Origin: an uncultured Corynebacterium sp.
GTDB taxonomy: Bacteria > Actinomycetota > Actinomycetes > Mycobacteriales > Mycobacteriaceae
Assembly (NCBI RefSeq): GCF_946221105.1
Contig: NZ_CAMICL010000002.1
Span: 14,541-78,540, forward strand
Direction: 5' to 3'
Length of the DNA stretch: 64,000 nt
A program made the translations under genes and the position numbers. Positions within the stretch are counted from its first letter, which is position 1, and every line of letters begins with the position of its first letter. Below are positions 29,962-63,443 of the stretch, piece after piece. Below the pieces are notes generated by a model. The model was given only the letters and a program-made list of their open reading frames with translations. It ran no database searches and had not been told where the DNA came from.

Positions 29962-29981
29962 GTACCCCTCCAATAAAAAAG

Positions 29982-30053
29982 CTTCCCCACCAGGACTCGA
30001 ACCTAGAATGACGGTACCAAAAACCGTAGTGTTGCCGATTACACCATGGGGAA
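29982..30053 (-). tRNA. tRNA-Gln (anticodon TTG), 72 nt, CCA not encoded.
   Basis: Manual cloverleaf. Acceptor TTCCCCA/TGGGGAA, D-arm GTGT..ACAC, anticodon stem ACGGT/ACCGT with loop UUUUGGU, T-arm CTAGG-TTCGAGT-CCTGG, followed by TTTTTT. Confidence 0.85.
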
Positions 30054-30129: not shown

Positions 30130-30796
30130 CATGGCTCGAAGGCGAATGACGGCACCCCAGCGCAGAGATCAGTTGATCGGAGTGGGCAGGCAAGCATTTG
30201 CTGAGCGGGGCCTCGACGGCATTTCCATGGAGGAGATCGCGGCGCGCGCCGGGGTGTCCAAACCTGTGGTGTACGAGCATTTCGGCAGCAAGGAAGGCCT
30301 GTACCAGGAGGTTGTGCGGCTGGAGATGGCCCGGCTGGAGCACACGATTACGTCGAATATCCAGGCCGGCCCGTGGCGCGACCGCATCGAGCGCGGCGTG
30401 CTGGCGCTTTTGACCTACGTGGAGGAGGAAACGGACGGGTTTGTCATCCTCGCGCACGGGCAGCTGCCGGGGGAGGGCAGGACGTACTCGACGATCCTCA
30501 ACCGCGTCACCGCCGAGGTGAGCTACCTGCTGGGGGAGGCATTTAAGCACCGCGGGCTCGACGAGTCGATGGCGGGGCTGTACGGTCAGGCGCTTGTGGG
30601 CACCGTCTCCAATTCGGCGCTGTGGTGGCTGGACGAGCGCACGCCCGACAAGCACACCGTGGCGGCGCACATTTCCAATCTGTGCTGGAACGGGTTGCGG
30701 GGGATGGAGGCGCAGCCGCGTGTGTACGGAAGCGGCGAGGCGAGCGAAAGCGCGAGCGACGAGACAAGCGGCGATACCGCAGAGAAGGATGCGTAA
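30130..30796 (+). CDS. TetR/AcrR-family transcriptional regulator.
   Basis: N-terminal HTH (ISMEEIAARAGVSKPVVYEHF). The ORF track's upstream extension spans the tRNA-Gln and is rejected. Confidence 0.85.
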
Positions 30797-30801
30797 GACA
30801 C

Positions 30802-33800
30802 ATGACTGACACCACCCCGCCCGTGTTGGGCGGTTTGCTCACCGCGGCGCTGACGGACCCGAAGCTGAAAGGCCTGGTCACGCACGTGGGCGAGGATTCG
30901 CTGCACGTCACTGGCATTGACCAGGTACGTTCTTGGGCTGCGGGCGCGATTGCGCGCGAGACGCCGGTGCTGCTTGTCACGGCCACCGGCCACGAGGCGG
31001 AGGACCTCGCCGCGGAGCTGAAGGCCATTTTGGGCGAGGAGAAGGTCGCGCAGTTCCCGGCATACGAGACGCTGCCGCACGAGCGTCTCTCGCCGGCGCC
31101 GGACATTGTGGGGCGCCGCTCGAAGGTGCTGTGGGACATGCCGCGCGTGATCGTCGCGGCGGCGCGCGCGGTGTGCCAGCCGGTGCTGCCGCCGGCGGAG
31201 CCTGTCAGCATCGCGGTGGATGAGGAGCACGACTTCGAGGAGCTGACCGCGCAGCTGGTGCACTTCGCGTACAACCATGTGGACATGGTGGCGTCGCGAG
31301 GCGAGTTCGCCACCCGCGGCGGCATCATCGACGTCTTCCCGACCACCGCGCAAAACCCTGTGCGCATCGAATTCTGGGGCGACGAAGTCACCGACATCCG
31401 CTCGTTCGCGGTCGCGGACCAGCGCACCATCGAGGAGGTGCGCGCGGTTGAGCTGCATCCTGCGAGGCAATTGCTTATCGACGACACCGTGGCCGCCAAA
31501 GCCGACGACCTCGCGCGAAAGTTCCCCTCGAACCCGACGTTGTCGTCGCTGCTCGCCCGCATCTCGGAAAAGCAGCCGGCGGATGGCATGGAGGCGCTCA
31601 TCCCGGCGCTGACGGACAAGCAGTACGCGGTGCTGCCGGAGCTTATGCCCGCAGGTTCCGTGGTGCTGGTGACCAACCCGGAGAAGGTGCGCACCCGCAT
31701 TGCCGACTTGGAGGCGACGGACCGCGAGTTCCTCGAGGCCGGCTGGGAGGCCGCCGCCATGGGCGCCGAGGGCCCTGTGGTGGTGGAGGGCCTGGACGTG
31801 TCCGCCTCGTCGTACCGCTCGTACGAGTCGCTGGAGGTCTCCGCGTCCAAGACCGGCAACGCTTGGTGGACGTTTGCCCCGCCCGGCATGTTCGCCGCCG
31901 ACGACGCGGAGACGCTGCCACTGGAATTCGAGGCCGCGCCCGCGCCGAAGGGCGACCCGAAGGCGATCGAGCAGCTCTACGCCACCCTGAAACTCCACAT
32001 CGGGCAGAACCACGGCAAGGTCGCGTTCGTGGCACCGGCGAAGGGCACGATCGACCGCATGGCGGAGCGCCTGCGCGAGCACGGCGTGTCCGCGCGCGTG
32101 GCCACACCCGGTTTGGAGCCGGTCGAGGGTGCGGTGACCTTGTACCAGGCGCTGTCGCACGCGGGCCTGGTCTTCGGCGGGCCGAACCTGGTCGTGGTCA
32201 CCGAAACGGACGTCACCGGCAACCGCGTCGGCGATATCGCGGGTGCTAAACGACGCGCCCCGCGCCGCCGCAACCGCGTCGACCCCCTCGCACTGCAGCC
32301 TGGCGACTTCGTCGTGCACGACACCCACGGCATCGGCAAGTTCGTGAAGATGGCCGAGCGCACCGTCAAAGCCGGCGACGAGGACTCGCGCCGCGAATAC
32401 ATCGTGCTGGAGTACCAGCCTGCCAAGCGCGGCCAGCCCGGCGACCAGCTGTGGGTGCCAATGGAGTCTTTGGACCTGCTGAGTAAGTACACCGGGGGCG
32501 AGAAACCGTCGCTAAGCAAGATGGGCGGCTCCGACTGGAAGTCCACTAAGCGCAAGGCGCGCGCCGCGGTGCGCGAGATCGCCGGCGAGCTGGTGGAGCT
32601 CTACGCCAAGCGCCAAGCCGCACCGGGCCACGCGTTCGCGCCGGACACCCCGTGGCAGCACGAGATGGAAGACGCCTTCCCGTTCGTGGAGACCGAAGAC
32701 CAGCTCACCGCCATCGAAGCGGTGAAGTCGGACATGGAAAAGCCCACGCCGATGGACCGCGTCATCGTCGGTGATGTGGGCTTCGGCAAAACTGAGGTCG
32801 CCGTGCGCGCCGCGTTTAAGGCAGTCCAGGACGGCAAGCAGGTCGCGGTGCTCGTGCCCACGACCCTTCTGGCCCAGCAGCACTTCTCCACGTTTAGCCA
32901 GCGCATGGACGGCTTCGGCGTGACGGTGCGCGAGCTGTCGCGCTTTACCACCGCCGCCGATTCGAAGAAGATCATTTCGGGACTTGCGGACGGCTCGGTG
33001 GACATCGTCATCGGCACCCACCGCCTGCTGCAGACGGGCGTGCAGTGGAAGAACCTCGGCCTGATCATCGTGGACGAGGAGCAGCGCTTCGGCGTGGAGC
33101 ACAAGGAGCACATCAAGGCGCTCAAATCGCACGTGGACGTGCTGACCATGACCGCAACGCCGATCCCGCGCACCCTGGAGATGTCTTTGACCGGCATCCG
33201 CGAGATGACCTCCATTACCACCGCGCCGGAGGACCGCCACCCGGTGTTGACCTATGTGGGCCCGCAGGAGGACAAGCAGGTCGCCGCCGCAATTCGCCGC
33301 GAGCTGCTCCGCGACGGGCAGGTGTTCTACATCCACAACAAGGTCTCCGACATTGAAAAGACCGCCCGCCAGCTGCGCGAGCTTGTCCCGGAGGCGCGCA
33401 TCGTGGTCGCCCACGGCCAGATGAGCGAGCAGGTGCTCGAGCAGACCGTGCAGGGTTTTTGGAACCGCGACTACGACGTGATGGTCTGCACCACCATCGT
33501 CGAAACCGGCCTGGACATCGCCAACGCCAACACCCTGATCGTGGAAAACGCCCAGAACATGGGCTTGAGCCAGTTGCACCAGCTGCGCGGGCGCGTGGGC
33601 CGTTCCCGCGAGCGCGCCTACGCGTACTTTTTGTACCCGAAGGACAAAACGCTCACGGAGACCTCCTACGACCGCCTGGCCACCATCGCCCAGAACAACG
33701 ATCTGGGCTCCGGCATCGCCGTGGCGCAAAAGGACCTGGAGATGCGCGGCGCCGGCAACGTGCTCGGCGCCGAGCAGTCCGGCCACATCGCTGGGGTGGG

Positions 33801-34446
33801 CTTTGACATGTACGTCCGCCTGGTCAGCGAAGCCGTGGAAACCTTCAAGGGGCTCATGAGCGGCGAGCCCATCGACGCCACCGACAAGGGCCCGAAAGAG
33901 ATCCGCGTGGACCTGCCCGTCGACGCCCACATCCCGGAGAGCTACATCAACTCCGAGCGTCTGCGCCTGGAGGTCTACCGCAAGCTCGCGGAAGCGCGCG
34001 ACGACGACGCCCTGACCGCCGCCGCCGACGACATGATCGACCGCTTCGGCGCCCTGCCGAAAGAGGTCGAGCACCTCATGGCCGTAGCGCGACTGCGCAA
34101 CCAGGCCCGCGAGGTCGGCGTTGCGGATGTGCTCACCCAGGGCAGTCGCATCAAGCTGCACCCGGTGGAGCTGCCAGACTCCAAGCAGGTGCGCCTGAAG
34201 CGCCTCTACCCGGGCGCGAACTTCCGCGCCGCGGCGAAAGCGCTGCAGGTGCCGATGCCGCGCGAGGGCGGGGCGAAGCGCGCGCTGAATTCGCCGAACC
34301 TGCGCGACCTGGAGCTTTTGCAGTGGGTCGCCGACTTCATGACGGAGATGCTCGACGCCCCGAAGATCTCCGTCGCGGGTGCTGCCGCGGATGCTGCGGC
34401 CGCAGAAAAGGCGCCGAAGAAGAAGGTGTTCTCCGTCAGCGAGTAG
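30802..34446 (+). CDS. mfd: Transcription-repair coupling factor.
   Basis: UvrB-homology region, RNAP-interacting domain, superfamily-2 helicase motifs (GDVGFGKTEVA, DEEQRFG) and the TRCF C-terminal domain. Confidence 0.95.
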   Translation: MTDTTPPVLGGLLTAALTDPKLKGLVTHVGEDSLHVTGIDQVRSWAAGAIARETPVLLVTATGHEAEDLAAELKAILGEEKVAQFPAYETLPHERLSPAPDIVGRRSKVLWDMPRVIVAAARAVCQPVLPPAEPVSIAVDEEHDFEELTAQLVHFAYNHVDMVASRGEFATRGGIIDVFPTTAQNPVRIEFWGDEVTDIRSFAVADQRTIEEVRAVELHPARQLLIDDTVAAKADDLARKFPSNPTLSSLLARISEKQPADGMEALIPALTDKQYAVLPELMPAGSVVLVTNPEKVRTRIADLEATDREFLEAGWEAAAMGAEGPVVVEGLDVSASSYRSYESLEVSASKTGNAWWTFAPPGMFAADDAETLPLEFEAAPAPKGDPKAIEQLYATLKLHIGQNHGKVAFVAPAKGTIDRMAERLREHGVSARVATPGLEPVEGAVTLYQALSHAGLVFGGPNLVVVTETDVTGNRVGDIAGAKRRAPRRRNRVDPLALQPGDFVVHDTHGIGKFVKMAERTVKAGDEDSRREYIVLEYQPAKRGQPGDQLWVPMESLDLLSKYTGGEKPSLSKMGGSDWKSTKRKARAAVREIAGELVELYAKRQAAPGHAFAPDTPWQHEMEDAFPFVETEDQLTAIEAVKSDMEKPTPMDRVIVGDVGFGKTEVAVRAAFKAVQDGKQVAVLVPTTLLAQQHFSTFSQRMDGFGVTVRELSRFTTAADSKKIISGLADGSVDIVIGTHRLLQTGVQWKNLGLIIVDEEQRFGVEHKEHIKALKSHVDVLTMTATPIPRTLEMSLTGIREMTSITTAPEDRHPVLTYVGPQEDKQVAAAIRRELLRDGQVFYIHNKVSDIEKTARQLRELVPEARIVVAHGQMSEQVLEQTVQGFWNRDYDVMVCTTIVETGLDIANANTLIVENAQNMGLSQLHQLRGRVGRSRERAYAYFLYPKDKTLTETSYDRLATIAQNNDLGSGIAVAQKDLEMRGAGNVLGAEQSGHIAGVGFDMYVRLVSEAVETFKGLMSGEPIDATDKGPKEIRVDLPVDAHIPESYINSERLRLEVYRKLAEARDDDALTAAADDMIDRFGALPKEVEHLMAVARLRNQAREVGVADVLTQGSRIKLHPVELPDSKQVRLKRLYPGANFRAAAKALQVPMPREGGAKRALNSPNLRDLELLQWVADFMTEMLDAPKISVAGAAADAAAAEKAPKKKVFSVSE

Positions 34447-35163: not shown

Positions 35164-36486
35164 CTACTTCACGGAGAAGATGATCATCTCGGTGTCGTCG
35201 GGTTTGCCGCGGTAGCGGCCGTCGTCGCCCGGGAAGTTGTTGTCCAGCGCGGTGAGGTAGCGGCCGTCCTCGAGCTGGACGATGGTCTCGACGCTGAGCA
35301 GCGCGAATTGGAACGGATCGCCGATGCCGTAGGCGCGGGCGTCGGAAACCATGCCGATCTTCCCCGGGTTGGCAATGTCGAGCAGGTCCGCCATCAGCTC
35401 CTTTTTCACCGTGGAGCCGGCTTCAGCGTCCGCGAAGTCCTTGACCTCGAAGACCTTCTTCAGCTGCGCTTCCGAGCCGCGGAAATCGTCGCGCTCGAGC
35501 ACGAGCAGGCGGCCGTCCTTGGTCAAAAACGCGTCGCCGATCAGGGCGTCGTCGCCCTCTGCCACGTAGTTCCAGGTCTTGCCGGTGTACTTGCCGGACT
35601 CGGTGTCGAACTGGGAGATCACGCGCACGCGCTTGTCGGTGGCGCTGTCCAGGTAGCCCTCGAAAATGGGGTACAGGTAGCGGCCGTCGGTGGCCATCGC
35701 CTCGAAGCCCTTGGAGTTGCGCAGGTTCGGCTTTTCGTCCTTGCCCAGGGTCGGGTTCGACGGGCTCTTGACGCCGGGGTAGGGGTACGGGGCGTCGAGA
35801 AGCGTGCCGTCCTTATCAACGTGCAGGATGTAGGGGCCGAACTCCTCGCCGACCCAGAAGGTGCCGTCTTCGGCGCGGACGAAGGACTCCGGGTCGAAGT
35901 CGGCGCCGGTGAGCAGGCGGTCCTTGGTGTCGTTGTTGACGATCTCCCACGGGATCGTGTTGTTTGGGTCCTTCAACTCGATGTAGTCCAGCACTTCGAT
36001 GCCGCCGACGTCCTTCGGGTTCTTCGCGGTCTCGGCGGTTTCCCAATTCGGCTTCACCGTGTAGATGCGCAGCAGGAAGTCCGAGGAGTTCTGCTTCGAG
36101 CCGAAGCCGTTGTCCGGCAGTGCGAAGAACTCGCCGTCGCCCTTTTCGATCATGCCGGAAAAGCCCGGGATGACCTGGCCTTTGAACGGGTGGGTCTGGC
36201 CGTTGCCGTCGAAAGCGTCCTTGCCGGAGTCCGGGCCCGGCGCCTGGTAGAGCGCAGACAGCTTCGCGCGGCCTTCAAGCACCGGCCCGTTGACCTCGGG
36301 CGCGGGCTCGGTGTGGGCGGCGCCGTCGCTGGAGCCGGTCGCTTCCGAGCTCCCGCCAGCGGCGGAACCGATCGCGCCGCCGACGAGGCCGCCGACAACG
36401 AACGCGCCCGCGACAGCCGCGATGAGCTGCTCGAGGTTGAGGTTCTTAATGATCTGGTCGAGCGGGGGAGGGAGCTGAATATTCAT
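35164..36486 (-). CDS. Secreted/membrane-anchored protein of the 'esterase-like activity of phytase' family.
   Basis: N-terminal TM anchor and a C-terminal beta-propeller-like domain resembling PF13449-type proteins. My family assignment is tentative. Confidence 0.6.
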   Translation of the reverse strand: MNIQLPPPLDQIIKNLNLEQLIAAVAGAFVVGGLVGGAIGSAAGGSSEATGSSDGAAHTEPAPEVNGPVLEGRAKLSALYQAPGPDSGKDAFDGNGQTHPFKGQVIPGFSGMIEKGDGEFFALPDNGFGSKQNSSDFLLRIYTVKPNWETAETAKNPKDVGGIEVLDYIELKDPNNTIPWEIVNNDTKDRLLTGADFDPESFVRAEDGTFWVGEEFGPYILHVDKDGTLLDAPYPYPGVKSPSNPTLGKDEKPNLRNSKGFEAMATDGRYLYPIFEGYLDSATDKRVRVISQFDTESGKYTGKTWNYVAEGDDALIGDAFLTKDGRLLVLERDDFRGSEAQLKKVFEVKDFADAEAGSTVKKELMADLLDIANPGKIGMVSDARAYGIGDPFQFALLSVETIVQLEDGRYLTALDNNFPGDDGRYRGKPDDTEMIIFSVK

Positions 36487-36645
36487 ATGCCACTGCCTTT
36501 ACAATCGTGCGAAGCTGAGCGGAAAACTCAGGCGAAACTTAGTTTTCGCACAGCGAGTGTAAGGCGGGTCGGCCGGCTTCGCTCGGTGAAAACAGCCGAC
36601 CGATTCCCGCCCGGAGGCGCGGGGGAAGTACGATATTTTCCCGTC

Positions 36646-36722
36646 GCCCCTATAGCCCAATTGGCAGAGGCAGCGGACTTAAAATCCGCCCAGTGTCGGT
36701 TCGAGCCCGACTGGGGGCACCA
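36646..36722 (+). tRNA. tRNA gene (74 nt plus encoded CCA). The anticodon loop CUUAAAA reads as anticodon UAA (Leu) in a class I (short variable arm) body. The isotype needs confirmation.
   Basis: Manual cloverleaf. Acceptor GCCCCTA/TGGGGGC (one G.U), anticodon stem GCGGA/TCCGC, 5-nt variable loop, T-arm GTCGG-TTCGAGC-CCGAC, discriminator A, CCA. Confidence 0.8.
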
Positions 36723-37481
36723 CTACACGGCGGTGTATCCGCCGTCGGCGAGGTGGTAGGAGCCGTTGACGAACGACGCGTCGTCGGAAAGCAAGAAGCT
36801 CACCACCGCCGCGATCTCCTCGGGCTCGCCCAGGCGGCCAGCAGGATGCTTATCGACGAGCGCCTGGCGGGCCTCGCCCTGCGCCCGCTGAATCAGCGGC
36901 GTGTCAATGTACGCCGGACCCACGCAGTTGACCCGGATGCCGGTGGCGGCGTAATCCGCGGCCAGAGACTTGGTCAGCCCCACCACGCCGTGTTTCGCGG
37001 CGGTGTATGCCTCGATGCCGCCGGCGCGGCCCACGGAGCCGTGGATGGAGGACATGTTCACAATCGCGCATTGTTCCGTGTTGCCCTGCTCGAGGAACTG
37101 CTTGAGCTGGTAGTGGCAGCCGTAGGCCACGCCGGACAGGTTGATGGCGATGACCTTGTCCCAGTCGGCCAGGTCCTTGTCCGCAAGCGGGGTGTGGTCG
37201 CCCACGCCAGCGTTGTTCACTGCGAGGTGGAGCGCGCCGAACGTGTCCACGGCGAACTGCACGGCCGCCTCGTTGTCCTCCTTGCTGGCCACGTCCTGGC
37301 GGAACGCGGCCGCGGCACCACCGTCCGCCTCGATCGCGGCGGCGACGTCCTTGGCGGCGTCGTCGTTGATGTCGGCGACCACCACCTTGGCGCCCTCGCT
37401 GGCGAGACGCTTCGCGATGGCCTCACCGATGCCGGAGGCGCCGCCGGTGACCAGCGCAACTTTGTTTTCAAACTTGCTCAT
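36723..37481 (-). CDS. SDR-family short-chain dehydrogenase/reductase.
   Basis: TGGASGIG Rossmann motif, NNAG, and the catalytic S...YxxxK. Confidence 0.88.
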   Translation of the reverse strand: MSKFENKVALVTGGASGIGEAIAKRLASEGAKVVVADINDDAAKDVAAAIEADGGAAAAFRQDVASKEDNEAAVQFAVDTFGALHLAVNNAGVGDHTPLADKDLADWDKVIAINLSGVAYGCHYQLKQFLEQGNTEQCAIVNMSSIHGSVGRAGGIEAYTAAKHGVVGLTKSLAADYAATGIRVNCVGPAYIDTPLIQRAQGEARQALVDKHPAGRLGEPEEIAAVVSFLLSDDASFVNGSYHLADGGYTAV

Positions 37482-38824: not shown

Positions 38825-40195
38825 CTATACGCCGCCTTTGATGCCGTTGTACGCCTCGAGTGCGACTTTGCGCGACGCCTTCACGTCCACCATCGGCTCC
38901 GGGTAGCCGGGCAGCAACGCCTCCGGCGTCCAGCGCCCGACGTACTTGCCGGAGGGGTCGAACTTCTCCTGCTGGGTCAGCGGGTTGAAGATGCGGAAGT
39001 ACGGTGCGGCGTCGTCGCCCGAGCCTGCCACCCACTGCCAGTTGAACGGGTTGGAGGCGGCGTCGGCGTCAACGAGCGTGTCCCAGAACCACTCCTCGCC
39101 GTGGCGCCAGTGGATGCCCAGGTTCTTGGTCAGCCAGGAGCCGGCCACCATGCGCACCCGGTTGTGCATGCGGCCGGTTTCCCACAGCTCGCGCATGCCG
39201 GCGTCCACCAGCGGCACGCCGGTCTCGCCGCGCTGCCACTGCGCCAGCTGGCCCAAGTGCTGGGCGGCGTCGGCGTCCGGCTCCATCGCCGGATCCGCGA
39301 AGGCTTGCGCGAAATCCCAGGGTGCCGCGTGCGAGCTCCACGCCCACTCGAACCGGTCGAACTGGCTGTGCACGTTGCGCACCGCCAGGTCCGGCAGGTG
39401 GTATAGGCGGTGCCAGGCGAACTCGCGCCACACCAGCTGGCGCAAAAACGCCCACGCGTGGGGCGCGGCGGCCGGGTGCGTCTCCGCAAACGCCGCCGTT
39501 TCGGCCCACACGTAGCCCGGCGAGAGCTCCCCGAAGCGCAGGTGCGCGCTCAGGCCCGAGGTCGCGCCGGGGCTCAAGTCGTTGTTGTCGTAGCCGCGCC
39601 CGTCCGCAAGCCCGTCCAAGAATTCGTGGAAGCGCGAGAGCGCGGCGTCCTCGCCGGGTATGTTGTGCTCGACTAACCCCTCGGTCCACGACGGCGCCTC
39701 CGGAACCTCCAGCCGCGCGCCGCCCGGCAACGCCGGCGCGGAAACGGGCTGCGGCGGGTGCGCGATCAAATGCTGCTGCATGGCCTTGTAAAACGGCGTG
39801 AACACCCGGTACGGGGTGCCGGCGCCGGTGTTGATCTCCCAGGGTTCCGCGAGCAGGAACCCGGGGAACGTGCGCGCGCCCACCGCACGCTTGACCTCGG
39901 CGTCCACATCGACCGCGTCGTACCGGCGGTTCCACGCCACCTCCGCGCCGAGCTCTTTGGCCAGGCGCGGGATGATCTCGCGGGGATCGCCCTGCTCGCG
40001 GATTATCGGGAGCTTCGTGCTTAGCGACGCCACACTGTGGTCGCGCCACCACGCGGCGGCGCGGCCCAGGGGGCGGGGGCCGGAGGTGTCGTCGATAAGC
40101 ACACCTGCGACCTCTCCGCGCGACACCGCCCACGACAAGGCGGGGTTGTCCGTGACGCGAAGGTCGTCGCGGAACCAAACAAGGGTGGTGGGCAC
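38825..40195 (-). CDS. phr: Deoxyribodipyrimidine photolyase (cryptochrome/photolyase family).
   Basis: [17 protein letters not shown]-terminus and the FAD-binding C-terminal domain (WRE..W..L). GTG start with a GGAGG RBS. Confidence 0.9.
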
Positions 40196-60961: not shown

Positions 60962-62008
60962 CTACTCGCCGGTGTGCTCGGCAGCGTGCCGGGCACGCGA
61001 AGAGACCGGTTTCAATGCCGGGGCCTCGCCGCGCCGCGACGGCACCTGGGCCTCCTCCAGCTTGCGGGCGGTGACCATCACGCGCGAATCCATCGACGCC
61101 AGCGTGGCGTTGTAGGCCTCCACGGCCTTGTCTAGCGAGGCGCCGACCCGGTTGTAGTGCTCAGCCATGGTGGACAACCGTTGGTGCAGCTGCCCGCCTA
61201 AGCGCTGGATTTCCTTCGCGGCGTCGTTGAGCGATTCTTGGCGCCACCCCAGCGCCACGGTGCGCAGTAGCGCGAACAGGGTGGTGGGGGTGGCGATGAC
61301 CACGTCGCGGGCGAACGCGTAGTCCAGAAGCTCGGGGTCGATGGACAGCGCGGCGTCCAGGAACGGGTCTGCCGGCACGAACAGCACCACGAACTCCGGG
61401 GTGGGCTGGAACGCCTCGATGTAGGACTTCGCCGACAAGGTGTCCACGTGCGCGCGCACCAGGTGGGCGTGGCGGCGCATGAACGCCTGGCGCTCCTCTG
61501 GGTCCTCGGTGCCCAGCGCGTCCAGGTACGCCTGGAACGGCACCTTCGCGTCGACGACGATGTTTCTGCCTTGTGTGAGGCGGATGATCATGTCGGGGCG
61601 GACGCGTGAGCCGTCGATAAGCATGTGCTCCTGGGTGTCAAAATCGACGTGCTCGAGCATGCCGCCGAGCTCAACCACCCGCTCGAGCTGGATTTCGCCC
61701 CAGCGGCCGCGGGTCTGCGGGGAGCGCAGGGCGGTGATGAGCTGGTCGGTGCGGTCGCCCAGGCGTGCCGACGTGCGCCCGATCGCCTGCACCTGGCCCG
61801 CAAGCGAGGACGCGGAAACGGCCTGCTGCTTGTCCATCTCGTCGAGCTGCTCGCGCATGTCTTTCAGCGCGCGGGCGACGGGGCGCAGGTCCTGCGGGGG
61901 CTGTTGCGGGGTGGAGCGGCGCATCCAGGCGGCGCCGGTGAACACGCCGGCGATGAAGCCCGCGAGCAGGCCGGTGGCGAGGAGCAAAAGCACGGTGGCG
62001 GTCGACAT
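60962..62008 (-). CDS. rmuC: DNA recombination protein RmuC.
   Basis: N-terminal TM, coiled-coil region and the RmuC nuclease-like C-terminal domain. Confidence 0.88.
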   Translation of the reverse strand: MSTATVLLLLATGLLAGFIAGVFTGAAWMRRSTPQQPPQDLRPVARALKDMREQLDEMDKQQAVSASSLAGQVQAIGRTSARLGDRTDQLITALRSPQTRGRWGEIQLERVVELGGMLEHVDFDTQEHMLIDGSRVRPDMIIRLTQGRNIVVDAKVPFQAYLDALGTEDPEERQAFMRRHAHLVRAHVDTLSAKSYIEAFQPTPEFVVLFVPADPFLDAALSIDPELLDYAFARDVVIATPTTLFALLRTVALGWRQESLNDAAKEIQRLGGQLHQRLSTMAEHYNRVGASLDKAVEAYNATLASMDSRVMVTARKLEEAQVPSRRGEAPALKPVSSRARHAAEHTGE

Positions 62009-62039: not shown

Positions 62040-63443
62040 CTAGCGTTCGGGTTCGCTCATATGTTCGCTTGGGGTGTCCTTGCTGCTGTCGCCCGACTGC
62101 CACCCGCGCAGCCGCCCAAGGCCAGTCTTGCGAAGCTTCCGCAGGCTGGAGGTGCCGAAGCGCTCGGTCTTCTCGTGCGCTTCCTCGTCCGCAACCGGCG
62201 CGTTGACCCATTCGCGCTCGCCGCGCCACTCCTGGCGTTTGTGCACGGACTCTTTCTCCACGATCTCCGCGATGACGCGGCCTTCGTCGGTGGCGAAATC
62301 GATGTCGGGCGCTCCCAGCTCGCCGGCGTTGATGCGCAGTACCTCCAGCAGGTAGCGGTACACCACCGCGACCATCGCCGCAGCAGGCACGGCGAGGAAA
62401 CCGCCGACAAGGCCGAACAGCGTGCCACCGACCGTGACCGAAACCAGCACGATCACCGGGTGCAGGTTCATCGCCCGCGACTGCAGCATGGGGGAGAGGA
62501 CGTTGCCCTCCAGCTGCTGGGTGGCCAGCACGATCGCCAGCACGATCAGCGCCTTGGTGAACCCGAGGGTGACCAGAGCGATCAGCACCGCCAGCGCGCC
62601 CGCGACCACGGCGCCGACGATCGGGATGAAGCCCGCCATGAACGTGATCAGCGCGAGCGTGAACGCCATCGGCACGCCCACGATCGCGATACCGGTGCCG
62701 ATGACGATCGCGTCTACCAGCGAGCACACCGCCTGCGCGCGGATGAACCCGGACAGGGTGTTCCAGGCGCGGGTGAGCAGCTCCGTCAGGTACAGGCCGG
62801 TGCGGCCGCCGGTGGCGGAGCGCAGCCACGGCAGGAAGCGGTGGCCGTCTTTGAGAAAGAAGAAGGTGAGCACGAACAGCACCATCAGCGTCACCGACAG
62901 CCCGGCGGCGGTGTTGATGCCGGAGAACACCCCGCCGGCGATCGCGCCCGCTTGGTTCTGGATCCACCGCTGGATCTCGTTGACGCCCTCGTTGAGGTTT
63001 TCTGGGTCCATGTTCAGCGGAGGGCCCTGCGCCCATAGCTGCAGGCGCTGAATGCCCTCGAACGCCTGGATGTACAGCAGGCGAGACTGGCCCACGATGT
63101 CCGGGGCGATCAACATGCCGATAAATGCCAGCACCCCGAAGAACAACAGCATCGTCAACAGGGCGGCGAGGCCGGAGGGGACCCTTTGGCGTCGTAAAGC
63201 AGCTGCGATTGGGGCGAGCACGGTGCACACGATGAGCGCGATGACGACCGGCAAAACACCGGCCCAAAACGTGCCGATAAGCTGGCCCACCGCGTACAAA
63301 AACACCGCGATGACCAGGATGCGCAGCGTGAACTTCGCCGCGGAAGCGATCCAGTCGTTGAACACAACGTTGCGGTCCACACGGTCTTCGCGCACGGGGG
63401 TCTTGATCGGTTCACTCACGCGCACCATTGTGCCCCATTGCAT
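62040..63443 (-). CDS. AI-2E-family transporter (PerM/YdiK-like, UPF0118).
   Basis: Eight TMs and AI-2E family motifs. The start may instead be 63428. Confidence 0.8.

Follow-up and report, generated by a model that had tools for sequence, protein, structure and literature searches.

The literature states that almost all bacterial tRNALeu species are of type II. The type I tRNALeu(CAA) of Streptomyces coelicolor (SCOt09), which has the variable loop ACAGC, is nevertheless charged by the single LeuRS of that organism with a Km of 0.16 μM (Fan et al. 2019, Nucleic Acids Res, PMC6614811), so that the premise of an earlier note on the locus described here, namely that every bacterial tRNALeu is class II, was too strong. 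For charging of the type I tRNA of S. coelicolor, 5 nt is the minimal length of the variable loop and U8:A14 is a shared identity element, and the acceptance of type I has been linked to the leucine-specific domain of LeuRS (PMC6614811). The type I tRNALeu of S. coelicolor is not a substrate of the LeuRS of Escherichia coli, which means that acceptance depends on a host enzyme that tolerates type I; human mitochondrial LeuRS charges both S. coelicolor types (PMC6614811). S. coelicolor divides these two isoacceptors between the types: bldA, with the anticodon UAA, belongs to type II, and the one with CAA to type I (PMC6614811). A short-loop tRNALeu(TAG) has been reported in a mycobacterial paper as part of a horizontally acquired tRNA cluster. 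In the literature searched beyond Fan et al. 2019, which deals with the CAA isoacceptor, no description of a type I tRNALeu(UAA) in Mycobacterium or Corynebacterium was found.

The window, i.e., the whole 64-kb stretch of DNA analysed here, contains only two tRNA genes, a tRNA-Gln at 29981–30053 and a tRNA with a leucine anticodon and a short variable loop, which very probably is an ordinary, conserved chromosomal gene for a type I tRNALeu(UAA) reading the rare codon UUA. The latter gene occupies positions 36646–36722 of the plus strand and comprises 77 nt including an encoded CCA (sequence GCCCCUAUAGCCCAAUUGGCAGAGGCAGCGGACUUAAAAUCCGCCCAGUGUCGGUUCGAGCCCGACUGGGGGCACCA). Its parts are as follows.

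36646–36722, plus strand: complete type I (short variable loop) tRNA-Leu(UAA) gene (ARAGORN, Rfam RF00005, identical copies in other assemblies)
36646–36652, plus strand: 5' strand of the acceptor stem, GCCCCUA, with its partner UGGGGGC at 36712–36718; seven pairs, including a U6.G67 wobble (sequence, Rfam alignment)
36655–36671, plus strand: D-arm of 17 nt, GCCCAAUUGGCAGAGGC, with A14, A15, G18 and G19 present (Rfam alignment)
36673–36689, plus strand: anticodon arm, stem GCGGA/UCCGC and loop CUUAAAA (sequence)
36680–36682, plus strand: anticodon UAA (positions 34–36), followed by A37 and A38, i.e., an A36-A37-A38 context (ARAGORN)
36690–36694, plus strand: variable loop CCAGU of 5 nt, in which U48 is able to form an A15:U48 Levitt pair (sequence)
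36695–36711, plus strand: T-arm GUCGG-UUCGAGC-CCGAC (sequence)
36719–36722, plus strand: discriminator A73 (36719) and encoded CCA (36720–36722) (sequence)

ARAGORN identified the gene as tRNA-Leu(taa), and the Rfam family RF00005 matched it over model positions 1–71 of 71 with 57.2 bits (gathering score 29, E = 1e-9). The combination of a Leu anticodon, UAA, with a variable loop of 5 nt that lacks a variable stem defines the tRNA as type I, and both U8 and A14, the partners of the U8:A14 tertiary pair, are present. The D-arm (GCCCAAUUGGCAGAGGC) forms three Watson-Crick pairs and contains a C13.A22 mismatch, which is marked in the Rfam alignment and is absent from the earlier note. In other respects the anatomy given in that note holds: a tRNA on the plus strand at 36646–36722 is borne out by ARAGORN and by Rfam RF00005, the 7-bp acceptor stem, the GCGGA/UCCGC stem, the T-arm, the 5-nt variable loop, A73 and the CCA are all correct from the sequence, and the anticodon UAA is the one returned (as taa) when ARAGORN is run on the locus. 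The positions 36724–36727, at which it proposed to inspect read pile-ups over the anticodon, fall outside the tRNA, past its 3' end; the anticodon occupies 36680–36682. The minimum free energy (MFE) fold of the bare, unmodified tRNA sequence is not a cloverleaf (z = −2.19). Non-cloverleaf MFE folds are common among tRNAs; as the MFE fold is uninformative for a tRNA, we rely on the covariance model and on covariation, which outweigh it.

Independent copies of the locus were sought via the neighbouring phytase-like protein (35164–36486, minus strand), exactly the same sequence of which is encoded on 13 contigs of public assemblies. Seven of these 13 places were fetched. Sequence on the tRNA side is available for five, which come from three ENA assemblies, two of them of metagenomes, a JGI metagenome and a Logan assembly. 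The identical 77-nt tRNA is present in each of them (5/5), and the samples and pipelines behind them differ. Corynebacterium lehmanniae c8Ua_144 and Corynebacterium sp. MSK008 likewise carry these 77 nt, with flanking sequences that align to the window at 92% and 89%, respectively; the region just upstream of the Leu tRNA is largely conserved in C. lehmanniae. As for RmuC, the protein encoded in the window shares 99% identity with proteins under the names C. lehmanniae and C. haemomassiliense, and on such sequence identities the window is assigned to the C. lehmanniae/C. haemomassiliense species group.

Beyond this species group, the gene is widely conserved. One genome per bacterial species was scanned for the 5' half of the tRNA (GCCCCTATAGCCCAATTGGCAGAGGC), by a pattern that left the anticodon (three positions) and its stem open, and at least 119 loci matched. 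Among the listed loci, ARAGORN recognised 118 tRNAs, every one of which carries the anticodon UAA (118/118) and is 75–77 nt long as called, corresponding to a short variable loop. The listed matches belong to the genera Nocardia, Rhodococcus, Gordonia, Corynebacterium, Mycobacterium, Mycolicibacillus, Tsukamurella and Williamsia; a few others listed are from Rothia, Brevibacterium and Leifsonia. Reduction of the 118 listed orthologues to distinct sequences yielded 40 sequences of 74 nt, across which 99.9% of the stem cells are paired. All seven pairs of the acceptor stem are kept in these 40 sequences, the pair 6:67 being UG in 37 and UA in 3 of them, and six pairs, three of the five of the anticodon stem and three of the five of the T stem, have changed on both sides. 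The covariation score was matched by none of 500 shuffles, and controls with slid partners fell to 31–50% paired. The elements that were free to vary are the anticodon stem, the T stem and the 3' strand of the acceptor stem, the 5' half being fixed by the search pattern. For the same reason, the invariance of U8 and A14 among the orthologues, which lie inside the fixed pattern, is given by construction, whereas the loop CUUAAAA, U48 and A73 are invariant in the 40 distinct orthologues though the pattern left them free. Conservation of this kind marks a functional tRNA maintained by purifying selection. The variable loop is ACAGU in many orthologues, as compared to CCAGU in the window tRNA. A CCA is encoded in 39 of the 118 listed orthologues, and the remaining ones have varied trinucleotides, all starting with C, e.g. 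CTG, CCG and CTC; the encoded CCA is thus variable within one orthologous tRNA across Mycobacteriales.

The amino acid specificity of the tRNA was approached by a second scan, of viral contigs (IMG/VR), for the D-arm pattern GCCCAA..GG.AGAGGC with the anticodon left free. It returned at least 120 loci; among those listed, 119 tRNAs with the D-arm motif were found, all of which are short and have Leu anticodons (119/119), namely UAA (82), UAG (24), CAA (11), AAG (1) and GAG (1), representing the two Leu codon boxes. A body seen solely in company with the anticodons of the two Leu boxes shows the behaviour expected of leucine identity, which would not be the case for a Lys-derived one. Short Leu tRNAs with this D-arm, with five Leu anticodons, are abundant in the IMG/VR contigs (L005–L124, at least 120 loci). 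The G+C content of the listed viral loci has a median of 42%, with 89 of 120 below 50%, so the family reaches well beyond the actinophages.

The identity elements of E. coli tRNALeu are A73, A14, A15:U48 and the placement of G18G19 (as cited in PMC6614811), and the complete E. coli-type set, i.e., A73, A14, A15:U48, G18G19 and a D-loop of Leu size, is present in the window tRNA. Alignment with E. coli leuZ(UAA) revealed the same 17-nt D-arm and A15:U48, whereas E. coli lysT(UUU) has a D-arm of 16 nt and G15:C48. In a set of 701 phage tRNAs, A15:U48 was found in 142 of the 149 Leu tRNAs of the short type and in 25 of the 26 of the long type, and A73 in all members of either type (100%); the Lys tRNAs are mixed. 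Neither U48 nor A73 was part of the viral search pattern. The possibility that the D-arm is simply that of a class II tRNALeu was rejected on edit distances over positions 8–26 between the window tRNA and phage tRNAs, the median being 8 to long Leu tRNAs and 6 of 20 to Lys or Thr tRNAs. The case for leucine identity is consequently built on particular positions, the association with Leu anticodons and precedent, and not on overall similarity of the body.

Codon usage in the window provides a further line of evidence. In the 55 window ORFs with high GC3, UUA accounts for 15 of 1709 Leu codons, or about 0.8 per 1000 codons. These 15 UUA codons are scattered over ordinary genes, among them rmuC and genes for an AI-2E family transporter, a photolyase, an MFS transporter and a GNAT protein, and are not concentrated in regulators; their distribution, although a small sample, gives no hint of a bldA-like regulon within the window. 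Three of the UUA-containing genes are the following.

60962–62008, minus strand: UUA-containing gene
62040–63443, minus strand: UUA-containing gene
38825–40195, minus strand: UUA-containing gene

Residue 270 of RmuC, inside the Pfam domain, is encoded by UUA, and the corresponding column is Leu in 119 of 120 homologues; in the 81 lower-ranked homologues, which are mostly 60–86% identical, it is Leu in 80. The conservation of this residue fits standard decoding of UUA as leucine, the codon evidence being that of a single well-conserved UUA site. This site was used instead of the UUA sites near the tRNA, which in tblastn comparisons with the fetched loci turned out to be N-terminal and to have few homologues.

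The Leu tRNA gene is surrounded by genes coding for Mfd, a Rce1-like protease, the phytase-like protein, an SDR, a GDSL lipase and a photolyase, and the gene order from mfd to the tRNA is preserved in nine Corynebacterium loci. Neither the neighbouring genes in the window nor the matching loci include phage or integrase genes flanking the Leu tRNA. Retention of the mfd neighbourhood in nine Corynebacterium loci, together with the lack of flanking phage and integrase genes, indicates that the gene has been inherited vertically. A phage attachment site or another mobile-element context was also considered, and was ruled out by the ordinary neighbours and by the conserved gene order in other Corynebacterium species. 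The second tRNA gene of the window, tRNA-Gln(ttg) on the minus strand (29981–30053), is situated just upstream of mfd (30622–34446, plus strand), 6.6 kb from the Leu tRNA; it looks ordinary, and is also found in three of the orthologous 8-kb loci. Two contigs of metagenome-assembled genomes labelled 'uncultured Campylobacter sp.' (CALTYW010000031.1 and CAMIME010000006.1, our loci L185 and L217) also carry this actinobacterial tRNA. The former encodes homologues of the Mfd, Rce1-like, phytase-like, SDR, hyp118 and GDSL proteins of the window with 58–83% amino acid identity, and the latter homologues of the phytase-like, hyp118 and GDSL proteins with 60–76% amino acid identity; both look like wrongly binned Corynebacterium contigs.

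A scan with the strict sigma-70 consensus upstream of the tRNA did not reveal a promoter. A candidate for a −10 element is nevertheless present:

36629–36634, plus strand: candidate −10 hexamer TACGAT, 12–17 nt upstream of the mature 5' end (putative)

In 56 of the 118 listed orthologous loci, a TANNNT hexamer has its first base between −14 and −16, whereas TACGAT in the window starts at −17. This positional enrichment in the orthologous loci suggests that the Leu tRNA may have its own promoter and a very short leader, predicted at about 5 nt. At the other end of the gene, the SDR gene is convergent with the tRNA, and its stop codon (36723–36725; TAG on the minus strand, CTA as read on the plus strand) adjoins the encoded CCA (36720–36722, plus strand) without any spacer; no recognisable terminator was found between the CCA end of the tRNA and this stop codon (36720–36725). 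Between the phytase-like gene and the tRNA, which are divergent, the 160-nt intergenic region contains a G+C-rich inverted repeat, GGTCGGC...GCCGACC, around 36568–36601. A further inverted repeat, CCCGC...GCGGG, is found around 36607–36625 of the same region (36532–36626), as is a terminator-like hairpin on the minus strand at 36549–36532.

Among the explanations proposed in the earlier note, an assembly or sequencing error, by which the true loop would be CUUUUAA (Lys-UUU) and both A residues would be artefacts, is extremely improbable, with nothing found in its favour: the identical 77 nt recur in five independent assemblies (ENA, JGI, Logan) and in two named genomes, and the loop CUUAAAA is invariant among the 118 listed genome tRNAs. 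The five assemblies thus refute that option, and the orthologue alignment, from which a loop CUUUUAA was to emerge if the UAA reading was wrong, shows an invariant CUUAAAA instead. It is likewise very unlikely, if slightly less so, that the gene is a derivative of a tRNALys(UUU) whose anticodon has changed to UAA, and which would be charged by LysRS and misread UUA as lysine, i.e., act as a missense decoder. In favour of such an origin, the tRNA has a generic class I appearance, owing to its acceptor and anticodon stems and its 5-nt variable loop; by edit distance of the D region, no other isotypes come closer than phage Lys and Thr tRNAs; and A73 is common to Lys and Leu tRNAs. However, neither UUU nor CUU occurs as anticodon in any of the 118 genomic or 119 viral listed tRNAs with this body, and the same body bears the CUN-box anticodons UAG, AAG and GAG, which are not derivable from Lys in this way. 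Moreover, E. coli lysT has a D-arm shorter by 1 nt than the 17 nt found here, and its Levitt pair is G15:C48 where the window tRNA has A15:U48; the D region as a whole stands at a moderate distance from that of phage Lys tRNAs (median 6 of 20), so these body features carry little weight by themselves. LysRS identity resides mainly in the anticodon, above all in U35, which the anticodon UAA lacks. The UUA codon of rmuC, finally, corresponds to a residue for which 119 of 120 homologues have Leu. The missense decoder of the earlier note is therefore contradicted by the listed relatives, none of which has UUU or any other non-Leu anticodon, and by the differing D-arm and Levitt pair. Its description of the body as Lys-type is easy to understand, since the D region is about as close to those of phage Lys and Thr tRNAs as to that of class II tRNALeu; the Lys-like look is that of a generic class I scaffold and no sign of Lys identity.

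A different type of explanation would accept the tRNA as leucine-specific and regard it as a redundant or accessory copy, perhaps acquired from a phage or with a non-ribosomal role, beside a class II tRNALeu(UAA) which does the real decoding. Close relatives are indeed found in actinophages and in many other phages, e.g. in Kykar and Trina with 84% and 90% identity, respectively. Against such an accessory status stand the chromosomal neighbourhood (mfd to tRNA) conserved in nine Corynebacterium species, with no adjoining integrase or phage genes, and the strongly conserved sequence in at least 119 species of many genera, which fits vertical inheritance and purifying selection. The loop with A36-A37-A38 and the compensatory changes in the stems also fit a tRNA that takes part in translation. 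In the 5-kb tRNA-rich stretch of phage Trina, moreover, the UAA slot is filled by a type I tRNA only, next to class II tRNAs with the anticodons CAA and UAG. On balance, we regard an accessory copy as improbable, and as a less remote alternative than the Lys derivative.

The reading we prefer with high confidence is that of an ordinary, conserved chromosomal type I tRNALeu(UAA), the orthologue of a gene passed down vertically within Mycobacteriales and no local peculiarity. It corresponds to the atypical Leu(UAA) decoder which the earlier note had listed among its options, and which is now supported by the UAA anticodon of all 118 listed orthologues, by compensatory changes and by UUA at a conserved Leu site. 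The tRNA would be transcribed from its own promoter, presumably located a few nt upstream, and processed to a 77-nt tRNA with encoded CCA. In view of the precedent from S. coelicolor and the presence of U8:A14, A15:U48 and A73, it would be charged with leucine by the LeuRS of the host, and would then decode the rare UUA, and by wobble also UUG, as leucine in ordinary translation. A wider proposal, which we consider plausible and somewhat favoured but hold with clearly less confidence than the assignment itself, is that the short-armed form may be the sole UUA decoder throughout Mycobacteriales, including relatives of Mycobacterium tuberculosis, having taken the place of the class II tRNALeu(UAA) in the order's ancestor, and that type I Leu tRNAs may be far more common in phages, including those of low G+C content, than the literature suggests.

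A class I body joined to a Leu anticodon in an actinobacterial genome should hence not raise the suspicion of recoding, of missense suppression or of an error. The missing long arm is the only unusual trait of the window tRNA, and one for which a published biochemical explanation exists. The type I tRNALeu as such is an already known kind, which the literature searched describes for bacteria only as the CAA isoacceptor of S. coelicolor; the present scans add its UAA version, conserved across Mycobacteriales, and the many type I Leu tRNAs of phages. The occurrence of the UAA type I form across Mycobacteriales, taken together with the phage-borne type I population, leads us to propose that dual-type recognition by LeuRS is probably widespread in Actinobacteria. 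The occurrence of the type I form has a bearing, too, on which hosts can make use of phage-borne type I Leu tRNAs. LeuRS is, besides, a target of antimycobacterial drugs.

The window tRNA shares with the type I tRNALeu(CAA) of S. coelicolor its actinobacterial origin, the UUR box, a variable loop of 5 nt, U8:A14, A73 and, presumably, the presence of a single LeuRS in the cell. It differs from the latter in the anticodon UAA, in having U48 where the S. coelicolor tRNA has C48, and in belonging to the order Mycobacteriales and not to the Streptomycetales; the biochemical precedent thus concerns another isoacceptor in another order, which counts against a direct transfer to the window tRNA. The class II leuZ of E. 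coli has the same anticodon, a loop of the CUUAAAA/UUUAAAA type, a 17-nt D-arm, A14, A15, G18, G19, A15:U48 and A73 in common with the window tRNA, which presumably has the same decoding job; unlike leuZ, however, it is devoid of the variable stem-loop of roughly 15 nt, and comprises 77 nt as compared to 87 nt. With bldA, which gates the translation of rare UUA codons in Streptomyces, it has in common that it is a tRNALeu(UAA) of an actinobacterium of high G+C content, where no Leu codon is rarer than UUA, but bldA is class II, and the UUA codons of the window are located in ordinary genes. The animal mitochondrial tRNALeu(UUR) is also a class I tRNA with the anticodon UAA and A73, and is charged by a LeuRS of bacterial type; as it is organellar and relaxed in structure, the likeness is architectural only. 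The tRNAs encoded by gene 27 of Mycobacterium phage Kykar and by FDI69_gt029 of Rhodococcus phage Trina have the same D-arm and the same anticodon as the window tRNA, at 83–90% identity. These short tRNA-Leu(taa) genes of 74–76 nt, which are annotated as tRNA-Leu in GenBank, are distinguished from the chromosomal gene by being phage-borne and, in some of them, by the absence of an encoded CCA.
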